Below, in pieces: positions 5,345 through 46,060 of a DNA stretch of 64,000 nucleotides. The notes beneath the pieces are model-generated. The model was not told the DNA's origin. It was given only the letters and a program-made list of their open reading frames with translations, and ran no database searches. Within the stretch, counting starts at the first letter, position 1; each line of letters opens with the position of its first letter. The stretch lies in NCBI GenBank assembly GCA_013265495.1, contig MU058221.1, positions 62,001-126,000 of the forward strand. The letters are read 5' to 3'. Position numbers and translations under genes: made by a program. This DNA is from Vicugna vicugna. Its lineage: Eukaryota.

Positions 5345-6820
5345 ATTATATAGCTACATTAATCAAGACTGTGTTATTACAGGGAGATAGAAACAGATCA
5401 GTTCAGAAGAATAGAGAATCCAGAAATAGACCCATACAAATATGCTCAACTGATTTTTGACACAGATGCAAAAGCAATTCAGTGGAAGAAAGAACCTTTT
5501 CAACAAATGGAGCAACTGAACATCCATAAGCCAAAACATGAACTTTGTCCTAAGCCTCACACCTTATATAAAAATTACCTGAGAATGGATCATAAACCCA
5601 AATGTAAACTGTAAAACTACAAAACTTTCAGAAAAAAAAATAGACAAATTTGGGATCTAGCACTAGGCAATGAATTCTTAGACTTGGCACCAAAGTCACA
5701 ATGCATAAGAGAGAAAACTGATCATCTGGACTTAATCAAAATTAAAAACATTTTCTCTGTGTTAAGAGGATGAAAAGACAAGTTAGAGAGTGGGGAAAAA
5801 CTGTGCAAATCATCTATCTACCAAAGGGACTAGTATCTAGAATATATAAAGAACTCTCAAAACTCAACAGCAAAAAAAAAAAAAATAGCAAACAATCCAT
5901 TTAGATCAGGGATAAAGTTATGAGGAGATATTTCACCAAAGATATTGAAGTAACAAATAAGAATATGAAAAGATATTCAACACCACTGGTCACTAGAAAA
6001 ATGCAAATTAAGACCACAGTGAGATACCATTACACATCAAGCAGAATGGCTAAACTGAAACAAAGTGACAACACCAACTGCTGACAAAGATGTGAAGAAG
6101 CTGGATCACTCACACATTGCTGGTGGGAACGTAAAATGAAACAGCTACTCTGGAAAACAGTTTAGGAGTTTCTCAAAAAAAAAAAACTAGACATGCAACT
6201 ATCACATAACCCAGCAGCTGTACTGTTGCTGGTCATTTATCCCAAATAAATGAAGACTTATATTCACACAAAACCCACACATATACTTAGTAGTTTAATT
6301 TGTGATAGTCAAAAGCTAGGAACAACCCAAATTTCTTTCAGTGGGTGAATGTTCAAACAAACTGTGGTATATTCATGTCACAGAATACTATTCAGCAAGG
6401 AAAAAGGAACAAACTTTTAGTACACGCAACAACCTGGAAGAATCTCCAGAAAAGTATACTGAGCGATTAAACGCAATCCAAAAGACTGAATACCTTATGA
6501 CTTTGTTGATATACCATTATTAAAATGTCAAAATTATAAAAGCAGGGAGTAAATTAGTGGTTTTGGGAATTAAGGAGGATTGGGTTCAGAAGAGAAGTGA
6601 CTGCAGCAATAAAAGGGCAACAGAGGGATTCTTGTGATGATGGAAGTGTTCTGTATTTTGACTGTATCAAGTCAACATCCTGGTTGTTATACTGTACTAT
6701 AGTTTTGCAAGAATTTATCATTGGGGAATTTTTATATGGAATATGGGATCTCTGCCTTATTTCTTGCAACTGCAGGTAAATCTGAAATTATATCCAAAAA
6801 AAGTCTAATTTAAAAAAATA
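5345..6820 (+). mobile_element. Old LINE-1 (L1MC/MD-type) ORF2 end and 3' UTR
   Basis: Degraded ORF2 C-terminus, then 'gtcaacatcctggttgttatactgtactatagttttgcaaga' 3' UTR and an A-rich end. Confidence 0.8.
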
Positions 6821-9009: not shown

Positions 9010-9113
9010 GGGAGGGAAATAGCTCAGTGGTAGAGCACATGCTTAGCATGCATGAGGTCCTGGATTCAATCCCCAGTATCCCCATTTAAAAAAAATAAAT
9101 AAAAATTTTAAAA
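9010..9113 (+). mobile_element. tRNA-Ala(AGC)-derived SINE (camelid vic-1 type)
   Basis: A box 'tagctcagtgg', anticodon-arm remnant 'gcttagcatgc', B-box-like 'ggattcaatccc', A-rich tail. Confidence 0.85.
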
Positions 9114-42299: not shown

Positions 42300-43880
42300 A
42301 AGACAGCAAGTGAAGTCCTAAGATAATAACAGCCCAGAGATGGACAAACAGACCAATGGGATAGAATAAGAGCCCGGGAATGAACCCAAGTGTACGTGTG
42401 CCTTTGGTAAAAGTAGATGAGGCCTCATTAATCGCTGGGGTGAAGGCAGACTGCCTACAGAGTGGGGGTGAGACAACTTGACTTCCGTATGCAAATTCCA
42501 AAGCTGGAAAATACCACTGAGTATCCACCTAACACCGTTCAAAAAATGAATCCCAGACTGATTGAAAAATAACAGTATCTCTATGACACTGGAAAGGGAA
42601 GGAGCTCTTCTCCTCCCCAGTTCTACTGTGTAGAATTATTACAATCCGACTGCACACACGTTATATTGCATGTAAATACATAGAGACAGTATACTGCACA
42701 TTTTGTTGTTTTCATATATGTACTAATTATTGTTTCTAAGAACAGATTAGATCTTTAGCTTTTTAAACTTACATAGTTATCAAAGGAATAAAGCCAACCA
42801 CAAAATAAGGAACAACAGAATGCGGTGATCCAATCATAAAGGACAGTCACATGTGCTCACACATATTCAAGAAATCAACATAATAATTAGTTCATTTGTG
42901 TCCTTATTATTACTACTATTATTTTTTAGATTCTTCATATAAATAATGTCACGTGGCATTTTTCTTGGAAAGGGAAGGAACTCTTAAAACGATACAAAAA
43001 GCAGAAATCATAAAGGCTTAATTAATTTGACTAAATCAAAACTACAGTTTCAGTACAATAGAGGCCACTTTTTTGAGAGGACAATTGTCAGCTCCTTATA
43101 TTCACAGAAAAAGAACATAAATCGATGATTCACGTATGAAATTCTGGTAAGAGGAGACTGAAATATACAACAACAGTCCACTTCCATCTAACATTTCTCT
43201 GCAGTACACAAGCTGGAAATCTGGCACATTCCCCTTGGCTGGGATAAAGGAAAACAAGAGCTGTCAGACACTGCAAGTGGGAGTACAGTCTGAGGCAGCC
43301 ACTTTGGAGACGTGTTTCATAATCATTGTTGACAATCCAGACATTCCAACGGTAGGTTAACACCTCGAGTGAAGTCCTACACCTATGCTCTGGAAGAGAG
43401 CTCTGTTTGTGATCACAGAATGTTGGAAACATCTCAAATGTCCATTAGAAGAAAAACAGATAAGTATTGATGTATACATATGATAAAATACTATAGCACA
43501 ATTAAAATGACAATTATGTTTTTTATATATCAACAAAAATAATTTTTAACAATGTAATGTTGAGTAAGGAAAGTTGTGTAACACTATGTACCCTATGATA
43601 TCATTTCTACACAGTTTATAAAAAATTATATATTAGTTGTGTATGTCTGTATATGCTTACATTACAAATTCATGGAAGCCCCTGTTTCTGGAGAGGAAAG
43701 GAGGTGAATGAAATTGAGGAGGTAAGCAAAGGAGAGTTCAATTTTATTGTAATGTTTTATTTCTTTAAAAAGAAACTAAAGTAAATATGATAAAATATTG
43801 GCACTTACTTATTTTTGTTGTTGGGTACATTCATGTTTATTCTCTGTAATTCTTTTGTGTTTTTTCTCTGATTAAAAAGT
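42300..43880 (+). mobile_element. Old L1ME-type remnant, interrupted by a younger L1
   Basis: Degraded ORF2-end and 3' UTR motifs ('cagaccaatgggatagaataagagcccggg', 'ctcaaatgtccattaga'). Confidence 0.6.
42610..42965 (-). mobile_element. Very short LINE-1 3' end with an atypical terminal tail
   Basis: 20-bp TSD tggaaagggaagga(g/a)ctctt (42590-42609 / 42966-42985) at a TCTT|AA site; tail homologous to 50060-50360. Confidence 0.8.
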
Positions 43881-43883
43881 CAA

Positions 43884-43944
43884 AGTGTTAACGGCGCTTT
43901 TAGAATTTGTCTGGCAGGCTTTCTGACCTGTACCAGAAACCCCC
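43884..43944 (+). pseudogene. RNU7: U7 snRNA retrocopy, forming the 5' end of a chimeric retrocopy
   Basis: agtgttaacggcgcttttagaatttgtctggcaggctttctgacctgtaccagaaacccc aligns end to end with recalled mammalian U7; U7-type Sm site aatttgtct(a>g)g at 43904-43914; 3' hairpin tttctg/cagaaa. Confidence 0.9.
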
Positions 43945-44099
43945 CCACGCAGGTAATTTCCAACAGCTGAGTCATTCTGGTTCGGGTGACTTGGTCTCCA
44001 CCTGTGAAGCTGGTTGAGTGCGGGAGGTCTGACCTGGCTCCTGCCAGTCGAGAGTGGGGAGGCTGGGACTGTGTGGGAGGCCTCCAGCTTCAGGCTGAT

Positions 44100-45048
44100 C
44101 CAGCTTCCCCTGCACCCCAGGCCGCCACCTGAGCACTGAACAAGCCAAGCTGGTCCTGGCCAAGGTGACACAGGCGTTCTTGGCCCAGGAGAACACCGTG
44201 CACACGGATGAAGCTCAGGACAATGGGTGCAACTGAGACAGGCTGGGATCTGAGACCCGGAACCCTGTGCTGCAGTGCTTGCACCTGGTCAAATGTATCC
44301 TTGAGCAACAGATACAAAGAAACCGTAAAGGACTAAAAGTAAGTGCATGCATGCACTGTTGGGGCAAATTATGAACAAGATAGAAAAAAATAAAAATCCC
44401 AACTGCCACTTCTGAAGTGTTCGGTGCAAAAACAGGGTGCTGTACTGCGCATGATCCCTGGACACAGCATCACCAAGGGCGCAGGAAGACTACCGGAGCC
44501 ACCCCTTCAGCTGGACCCCCGGATCCGCCCCTCCTCTTACTCCCTCTAAGGCACCAGTCTGCCCCACGTCAGGGAGTGAACAAGGGAACCGGTTACTTGT
44601 TCTCACTCCCTGGTGCTACAGCGGGAGTCCTGGCGAAGCCTTGCCTGAGTTTCTCTGGCTTCTTACCAATTTCTGTTGATTAAGGAGTCTAAGAATCCTG
44701 ATGAGTAACACAACAACATGGGCAAGATGCTGCAATTCAAGCTGCCCATGGCCGTGCAGATGCAGCAGGAAGTTATCAAATCCTCTGACTTCAACCGTGA
44801 TGGGGAAGGTGTCCTTAAGATTGCCCGCTTGGTCAAATCTTAAAAAGCATAGGATCCTGAGATGGCCAGCCTGTCTAGGAAGCTAAAGGTTCTGTTCCTG
44901 TCACCCATGACCCTGCCACCCCACAGGGCTGCTCTGAGTGGCAGTGTGGTCGCCTCCTGAGGGCTGGCCCTCTGGTGACACTGCCAGGGAAGGGAAGAAC
45001 TTGGTGTTCTGGAGGATAATAAATGTGCCTGTGACTTAAAAAAAAAAA
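44100..45048 (+). pseudogene. C12orf57: Processed pseudogene of C12orf57 (GRCC10, protein C10), interrupted by an LTR
   Basis: Translation LSTEQAKLVLAKVTQAFLAQENTVHTDEAQDNGCN-[LTR]-NMGKMLQFKLPMAVQMQQEVIKSSDFNRDGEGVLKIARLVKS*KA*DPEMASLSRKLKVLFLSPMTLPPHRAALSGSVVAS* matches recalled C10; no introns; ATG lost; stops at 44841 and 44850; native TGA 44958-44960; AATAAA 45018-45023; poly(A) 45038-45048. Confidence 0.95.
44234..44710 (+). mobile_element. ERV1-type solo LTR inserted in the C12orf57 pseudogene
   Basis: TG...CA termini (tgagacagg...gagtaaca); perfect 4-bp TSD caac (44230-44233 / 44711-44714); removing it restores the C10 frame. Confidence 0.9.
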
Positions 45049-45867
45049 GTCAAAAAGTTATTTCCTTTTCTATCAGAACATATAAATCCATCAAAATGTT
45101 TCCTGTGTTTTAAGATGTACTGAGTCAAAGAAATAACACCAACCCTGAGGCTGGGTTACCTAGCCCCAGAGCTTCTTCAAAAAAAACAGCCACAGTGAAG
45201 CTGGTGACGCAGAGTCGGTCAGAGGCCTCTAGATCCTGTAAGAGCCAAGCCTGAATGCTACCAACCTGTCCACTTCAGCTACCTTTGGGGAGTCTTGTCC
45301 CCAGATCCTAACTACCTCACATGTTCACCATGGCCACGTCAACCAGTGGCAAAACCTAGGAAACTCTGATCAGGGATGCATACAGGAGAGCGCCAAGTGG
45401 TTCATAAAATTTGCAGCCATGCTAATTCTGAAATCAGAGCATACAGTCACCTGATCGAATTCGCTCAGAACCAGAATCAGTGAGGAGGGTTGTTTTTTTT
45501 CCCCCTCTAGCAAATGCTCAGCCCCAAGGGTTTGTTTGTTTTTTTTAACCTAATCTAGATGGTTCCCAAACTCTTTCTTTACTATATTCTAACCCTAATT
45601 ATACTGGCAGTTGTAATCTGGTTCTAATTAAGCAAAGTCAGTTCTCAAGGTGCAGATCTGTTCCAGACCAGCTTACTGAAGGAGCACAGAGGACACAATG
45701 GAGCAAGTAGTCAGTCATTCCCCAGAAATCAGAATAATGTAGAGACTGACGAATTAATATCCAAAATTTCAAACAAAAGATAAAATGGACCTCATGAGTT
45801 ATATAGATCAGATGGACTCTAGAAAATATTTGTGTCTATCAAGACAAAAATTTAAAAATATACATGA

Positions 45868-46060
45868 GGGAGGAGGGTATAACTCGGTGGTAGAGTGTAT
45901 GCTTAGCATGAATGAGGCCCTGGGTTCAATCCCCAGTACCTCCATTAATGATGATGATGATGATAATGATAATAATAATAATAATAATTTAAATATCCCC
46001 CAAAATTGGATACAATTTTAAATTAAAAAAAAATAAAGTTTATAAAAATACAAAAAAAAA
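45868..46060 (+). mobile_element. tRNA-Ala-derived SINE (vic-1 type) with (GAT)n/(AAT)n-expanded tail
   Basis: 'ggagggtataactcggtggtagagtgtatgcttagcatg...gggttcaatccccagtacctcca' plus AT-rich tail. Confidence 0.85.

Follow-up and report, generated by a model that had tools for sequence, protein, structure and literature searches.

The 64,000-nt window analyzed here (Vicugna vicugna, assembly GCA_013265495.1, contig MU058221.1, positions 62,001 to 126,000 of the forward strand) harbors between positions 43874 and 45054 a composite element in which a U7 small nuclear RNA (snRNA) sequence is followed by a spacer, an intron-less C12orf57 coding part and a poly(A) tail (Table 1). An earlier note, made from the letters of this stretch, had interpreted the element as a single retrocopy of a read-through messenger RNA (mRNA) of the genes for U7 and C12orf57. 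It is confirmed that 43874-45054 represents one insert bounded by a target-site duplication (TSD), namely a LINE-1 (L1)-type processed retrocopy of a U7-C12orf57 transcript. The two duplications are identical at 11 of 11 positions; when the A-rich right flank was shuffled 60 times, this score was equalled once. TT|AAAA is the consensus site of the L1 endonuclease, and the left duplication lies in exactly such a context (gaTT|AAAAAG, 43872-43879).

The U7 part covers the Rfam model RF00066 completely (model positions 1-62) and reaches 45.1 bits compared with a gathering score of 34. An snRNA-type promoter with distal octamer and proximal element was not found upstream of it; the upstream flank is unrelated AT-rich DNA without similarity to the DNA upstream of the parental U7. 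Because this flank, unlike the parental upstream region, lacks an snRNA-type promoter, the window U7 is a pseudogene part and not a U7 gene. The spacer downstream of it has a length of ~175 nt. When positions 44129-44233 are joined to 44715-44960 and read in the correct frame, the translation is that of a C12orf57-like protein, interrupted internally by two stops, and the Pfam domain P_C10 (PF14974) matches 44715-44840 with 37.7 bits at a cut-off of 27. Both introns of the parental gene (297 and ~760 bp) are missing. At the 3' end, the A-run starts 15 nt past the AATAAA and is directly followed by the 3' duplication, while the alignments revealed a poly(A) cleavage site common to the parent and all retrocopies described below.

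Each element that the earlier note had listed for the window was recovered at its position. The one duplication pair at a TT|AAAA site, the 3' untranslated region (UTR), the AATAAA and the poly(A) tail were all recovered, and the proposed join of position 44233 to 44715 proved exactly right, since a long terminal repeat (LTR)-like unit of 477 bp plus one CAAC lies between them. Two of its statements need qualification. The claimed full-length U7 from its first nucleotide is borne out by the complete model coverage, but the start of the insert can be fixed only to U7 nt 1-3, because the duplication overlaps the first U7 bases. Likewise, the C12orf57 coding sequence is indeed intron-less with both exon junctions in place, but its ATG is deleted and it is disrupted by two stops and the LTR-like unit.

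Table 1. Features of the retrocopy in the window and of two further U7-led retrocopies in the same genome
Feature	Locus	Position	Strand	Evidence or remark
5' target-site duplication AAAAAGTCAAA	window	43874..43884	.	at TT|AAAA site; last two bases coincide with U7 positions 1-2
Full-length U7 snRNA sequence without promoter, pseudogene part	window	43883..43945	+	Rfam RF00066
Spacer, copy of parental DNA 3' of U7 (uncut 3'-box region and upstream part of C12orf57 leader)	window	43946..44120	+	alignments, permutation test
Junction of 104-nt deletion, GCCGCC microhomology	window	44121..44126	+	alignment columns 253-356
C12orf57 coding part 1, exon 1 (its end) and exon 2 without intron, junction 44150|44151	window	44127..44233	+	alignment, translation (LSTEQAKLVLAKVTQAFLAQENTVHTDEAQDNGCN)
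477-bp solo-LTR-like repeat (TG...CA), later insertion	window	44234..44710	+	4-bp duplication CAAC at 44230-44233 and 44711-44714
C12orf57 coding part 2, remaining exon 2 joined to exon 3 at 44808|44809	window	44715..44960	+	Pfam PF14974, alignment
3' UTR, AATAAA (45018-45023) and poly(A) tail (from 45038)	window	44961..45043	+	sequence, alignments
3' target-site duplication AAAAAGTCAAA	window	45044..45054	.	11/11 identical to 43874-43884
C4817 copy	C4817	256323-257105	+	fully spliced; 263-nt spacer complete; ATG present; duplication GGGAGAGACTA / GGTAGAGACTA, 10/11
C6892 copy	C6892	10016621-10015603	-	intron 1 kept, intron 2 removed; duplication ~20 nt, 18/20 identical

The parental locus was reached in the window's own assembly (2.03 Gb in 12,405 contigs, a single genome) by a search with 43884-44233 together with an Rfam search for U7. 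On contig C8359, a U7 sequence scoring 76 bits, a spacer of 245 nt (L020:5484-5728) and the C12orf57 ATG follow each other on the same strand, in agreement with the earlier note, which had placed the functional U7 gene of human and mouse just upstream of C12orf57. The parental C12orf57 consists of three exons separated by the two introns mentioned above, and its exon 2 obtains a P_C10 score of 77.4 bits. Upstream of the parental U7, inspection by eye found an ATTTGCAT octamer at ~200 bp and an TCACCCTCACC-type element at ~55 bp, which we take to be the octamer and the proximal element of the U7 promoter. The parental leader of ~308 nt contains, also by eye, no upstream ATG; hence, a U7-led mRNA would be translatable in principle. 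A look-up with the parental locus gave 24 sequencing runs, of which 14, labelled or guessed as RNA, hold 0.24-0.34 of the sampled words; these shares speak neither for nor against read-through. In human, C12orf57 is located 206 bp from RNU7-1, and both are disease genes (PMC9402729).

Furthermore, two more retrocopies of the same kind exist in this genome, the C4817 and the C6892 copy, which reside at unrelated sites with their own flanks and duplications. Three such copies are thus present genome-wide, and the description of the window insert as a single retrocopy has to be given up. The duplication scores of the C4817 and the C6892 copy were equalled in 2 of 60 and 0 of 60 shuffles, respectively; both insertion sites are A/T-rich, with an L1 consensus that is not clear-cut. 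The C4817 copy carries AATATA, and its A-tail has grown into a (GAAA)n repeat. The order in the C6892 copy is U7, spacer, exon 1, intron 1, the joined exons 2 and 3, AATAAA and a degenerate A-tail, and since intron 1 was retained, this copy was derived from an intron-bearing parent. The three U7-led copies run ~0.75-1.05 kb into C12orf57. Beyond the parent and the three retrocopy loci, nothing was returned when the genome was searched with exon 3, with exon 2 or with spacer plus exon 1 of the parent, or with PF14974 in all six frames; all candidates were scored (4/4, 4/4, 3/3 and 12/12, respectively). Hence, every C12orf57 retrocopy detectable in the genome by DNA and protein-profile searches is U7-led (3/3), and from these numbers the proportion of retrocopied C12orf57 mRNAs that started at U7 has a one-sided 95% lower bound of 37%. 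As an additional detail, the (GAAA)n microsatellite in the tail of the C4817 copy (L002:2283-2316) is followed by GGCGAC and then by the 3' duplication.

The spacer is the part in which a continuous transcript and a joined RNA would differ. The C4817 copy aligns in one piece to parental positions 5422-5779 and the C6892 copy in one piece to 5422-6256. When only the spacers were aligned locally, the pair of window and parent reached z = 12.2 with 0 of 500 shuffles as good; the corresponding values were z = 30.6 for window and C4817, 29.3 for parent and C4817, and 32.6 for parent and C6892, and all six spacer pairs fell within z = 12-50, again with 0 of 500 shuffles as good. The search with 43884-44233 found 69% identity to the C4817 copy over query positions 1-228. 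The homology of the window spacer rests on the permutation test and on the link via the C4817 copy. Because the retrocopy spacers are colinear with the parental DNA, template-switch or ligation chimeras of unlinked RNAs are excluded. It had been laid down beforehand in the earlier note that a linker differing from the parental DNA between U7 and C12orf57 should count against its reading; the linker was found to match.

All three U7-led copies begin within U7 nt 1-3, the duplication overlapping U7 positions 1-2 or 1 in each case, and not a single base from upstream of U7 is present in any of them. For comparison, the genome contains at least 11 classical U7 retropseudogenes, i.e. copies of U7 alone, and the duplication scores of 5/11 of these were reached by 0 shuffles. 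Those with a clear target-site duplication start at the same U7 5' end. At their 3' side, most classical copies stop 0-8 nt past the mature U7 3' end in an A-run; in L011, and arguably L014, the bases shown include no A-run.

Some observations on the U7 sequences themselves may be added. Several classical copies (L005, L007-L010, L013 and L016) display 2-8 extra bases between the mature U7 3' end and the A-tail, for example CG, TGG, ATGG or CGGGGAGG, which suggests U7 precursors with a 3' extension, or decay intermediates with a tail, as the templates. The retropseudogene L012 (C1645:3091514-3091573) is 5'-truncated and has an atypical 5' end, in which an A-run stands in place of the first ~8 nt (AAGTGTTAC part). 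The parental U7 (L003:1500-1511) reads AGTGTAACAG near its 5' end. The reading AGTGTTA(C/A) occurs in the three chimeric copies (window 43883-43895; C4817, L002:1500-1512), in most old retropseudogenes and in the Rfam consensus, and the parental TAAC is shared with the best-preserved classical retropseudogene (C2329, with an intact 13-nt duplication). TAAC in the parental U7 has the look of a lineage-specific substitution that arose in the functional U7 and could serve to arrange the retrocopies by age.

The flanks of the three U7-led copies and of the parent showed no similarity at E<=1e-5. Among 602 four-way alignment columns, the three possible groupings are supported by 11, 9 and 9 sites, which corresponds to a star. 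Because the flanks are unrelated and the informative sites are star-like, the three retrocopies are independent events. Private changes in the same columns amount to 62 in the window copy, 48 in the C6892 copy, 34 in the C4817 copy and 26 in the parent. Based on 62 versus 34 private changes (chi-square 8.2, p about 0.004 by relative-rate arithmetic), the window copy significantly predates the C4817 copy, while the age of the C6892 copy is not separable from either. The retained intron of the C6892 copy differs from the parental intron by a Kimura two-parameter distance (K2P) of 0.178 over 291 sites, which at the mammalian rates we assume would presumably mean tens of millions of years.

The window copy is dead and non-functional: it has no promoter, its ATG is lost, and its coding part is interrupted by two stops and by the LTR insertion. 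Measured against the other copies and the parent, the deletion of 104 columns removed the last ~74 nt of the leader, the ATG and approximately the first 10 codons. The in-frame stops TAA (44841-44843) and TAG (44850-44852) are situated in coding part 2, ahead of the natural C12orf57 stop at 44958-44960. Hence, the intact reading frame with start codon that characterizes a functional C12orf57 gene is not found in the window copy. The LTR-like unit belongs to a dispersed family, as each of the 40 genomic matches that were scored, from a total of 552 first-look candidates, was near full length with 74-77% identity. Its termini recur in five other copies, three of which show clear 4-bp duplications. 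When the unit is excised together with one CAAC, the parental reading TGCAAC-(G>A)AC-ATGGGC is obtained, and we read the 477-bp unit as a solo LTR that was inserted after the retrocopy had formed. Elsewhere in the window, three Rfam tRNA matches on the forward strand (9013-9084, 45873-45944 and 59281-59353; 42-55 bits) are candidate heads of tRNA-derived short interspersed elements (SINEs) and probably not tRNA genes.

Two features of the parental spacer are of separate interest. It carries 17 private changes in 143 four-way columns, the same as the pseudogenes; therefore, it has evolved fast although it represents promoter and leader DNA. A high CpG count (22 each) has been kept only in the parental and the C6892 spacer. 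Regarding the distribution of the gene pair, a metagenome scan with parental exon 2 gave 222 pattern matches, two of which encode a relative. One is situated on contig L045 (4256 bp), where an intron-bearing C10/C12orf57 gene from a non-mammalian-looking organism shows 83% identity in exon 2 and has its exons at about 1743-1804, 2125-2302 and 2423-2560; the other is a weak match of 36%. The Rfam U7 model found no match anywhere along L045, and from this contig it appears that the adjacency of U7 and C10 may fail outside mammals. Neither the L045 gene nor the weak match dates or generalises the U7-led retrocopies.

Collectively, our data show that the copied RNA held U7 from nt 1-3, its uncut 3' flank, the whole spacer, the C12orf57 exons free of introns and a poly(A) tail at the normal site, and that U7-C12orf57 RNA was copied into the genome at least three separate times. 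The insert in the window would then be best explained as an L1-type processed retrocopy of one continuous RNA polymerase II (Pol II) transcript of the parental U7-C12orf57 locus, to which we assign a probability of roughly 0.88. According to this proposal, Pol II would initiate at the U7 start site under control of the U7 snRNA promoter, as we infer from the start of each of the three copies at the U7 5' end. The transcript would then escape Integrator cleavage at the 3' box, and the read-through RNA would undergo splicing, which in one case stayed incomplete, as well as polyadenylation at the C12orf57 site, and thus become mRNA-like. Subsequently, an L1-type machinery would have reverse-transcribed the RNA at an endonuclease nick, probably in germ-line or early-embryo cells. 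In the window, the copy afterwards decayed by the 104-nt deletion including the ATG, the two stops and the solo-LTR insertion. The claim in the earlier note that the template was one read-through RNA, both spliced and polyadenylated, is supported by spacer colinearity, the three independent copies and their shared 5' end, and the distinction it had drawn from template-switch chimeras stands because of the parental genomic spacer present between U7 and the coding region.

Several points weigh against the continuous-transcript model. The window spacer is only 56.8% identical to the present parental spacer over 162 aligned columns, and when the genome was searched with parental spacer plus exon 1, the C4817 and the C6892 copy were recovered but the window copy was missed. 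Each copy leaves an uncertainty of up to 2 nt in the position of its 5' end. Moreover, the number of U7 copies found with Rfam is a lower bound, as 65 of about 603,000 first-look candidates were scored, and further C12orf57 copies could be missing from an assembly of one genome in 12,405 contigs. Finally, a longer RNA initiated upstream could in theory have been trimmed to the U7 5' end, although we know of no processing of this kind.

The 5' ends are also central for the explanation that the inserts represent 5'-truncated copies of a longer transcript, which started upstream of U7 at an alternative C12orf57 promoter or by read-through from the preceding gene and did not involve the U7 promoter. 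Truncation at the 5' end is common among L1-mediated copies, and human C12orf57 gene models presumably include variants that start upstream of RNU7-1. However, random truncation would not produce a shared end, whereas three independent insertions end within the same 3 nt, as do the classical U7 retropseudogenes with clear duplication, and no copy has bases upstream of U7. An upstream start is therefore regarded as improbable. Even slightly less probable appears a single read-through event, followed by multiplication of one chimeric retrocopy through DNA duplication or through re-transcription and re-copying. Such a history would account for the architecture and poly(A) site common to all three copies, but their duplications differ and their flanks are unrelated, the shared derived changes between copies (11/9/9 sites) do not rise above noise, intron 1 of the C6892 copy can come only from an intron-bearing parent, and re-transcription from exactly U7 +1 without an external U7 promoter is implausible.

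Chimeras made by joining RNAs deserve consideration, because chimeric snRNA retrocopies are a known class (PMC6789731, PMC4476161). In such a case, U7 snRNA would have been joined to an unrelated C12orf57 mRNA by RNA ligation or by a template switch during reverse transcription. We give this explanation next to no weight, because the stretch of 175-265 nt that separates U7 from the coding region is parental spacer, colinear and contiguous, the partner is the immediate downstream neighbor with the same join in 3/3 copies, no A-tail or junction scar follows U7, and the parental locus has introns and is hence not itself a retrocopy. The chance landing of a classical U7 retropseudogene beside a C12orf57 retrocopy is just as hard to credit. 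The existence of at least 11 such U7 copies in the genome makes two separate insertions conceivable, but one duplication pair surrounds the whole unit, U7 lacks an A-tail, parental spacer lies between the two parts, and the pattern is seen three times.

The continuous-transcript model has implications beyond the window. In the classical view, an snRNA promoter is tied to 3'-box processing and gives rise to no mRNA. The three independent genomic fossils would indicate that RNAs from the U7 start site were spliced and polyadenylated in heritable cells without any perturbation. Read-through from snRNA genes into downstream genes has been seen mainly when Integrator was experimentally disabled (PMC6390993). 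A directly testable hypothesis is that the U7 promoter contributes to the expression of C12orf57, a human disease gene (PMC9402729). More tentatively, it might be possible that the U7 promoter acts as a physiological and long-standing second C12orf57 promoter, perhaps the main one in the germ line, with Integrator cleavage versus read-through setting, in every round of transcription, whether U7 snRNA or a spliced and polyadenylated C12orf57 mRNA with a U7-containing leader is made; we consider this extended proposal rather unlikely. If it were true, C12orf57 output would be coupled to Integrator efficiency, and C12orf57 could in addition be affected by variants of RNU7-1 or of its 3' box. As a general method, retrocopies may serve as a record of the 5' ends and the read-through of germ-line transcripts that are missed by annotation.

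A description of a U7-C12orf57 chimeric RNA or retrocopy was not found in the literature, subscription journals and supplementary tables aside; C12orf57 may well appear in tables of Integrator knock-down RNA-seq. Compared with known systems, the U7-led copies share with L1-mediated processed pseudogenes the duplications, the TT|AAAA-type site, polyadenylation at the gene's own site, the loss of introns, the absence of a promoter and the later decay, but their RNA starts at the start of an snRNA gene, and an entire snRNA with its 3' flank uncut forms its leader. Classical U7 retropseudogenes have the same 5' end; however, most of them end 0-8 nt past the mature 3' end, whereas the U7-led copies continue into C12orf57. 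Retrocopies of read-through co-transcripts (transcription-induced chimeras), of which PIPSL in hominoids is reportedly one, are similar in that an RNA across two adjacent genes on the same strand was copied to a new locus. Here, in contrast, the upstream member of the pair is a Pol II snRNA gene whose product is not polyadenylated and whose 3' end depends on Integrator; splicing left the spacer between the genes in place, and the event recurred three times. Read-through reporters in which the U7 promoter is followed by GFP are said to have been used for studies on Integrator. U6-L1 and other snRNA chimeric retrocopies likewise carry an snRNA at the 5' end of a composite, but they reportedly combine RNAs of unlinked origin, through ligation or template switching, and contain no genomic spacer, whereas the parental spacer is present here (PMC6789731, PMC4476161). 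Finally, chimeric sn-mRNAs are reported to form in C. elegans when Integrator is disrupted (PMC6390993). The sn-mRNAs of C. elegans were seen after experimental loss of Integrator, while the corresponding U7-C12orf57 RNA is deduced from mammalian genomic fossils formed under unperturbed conditions.

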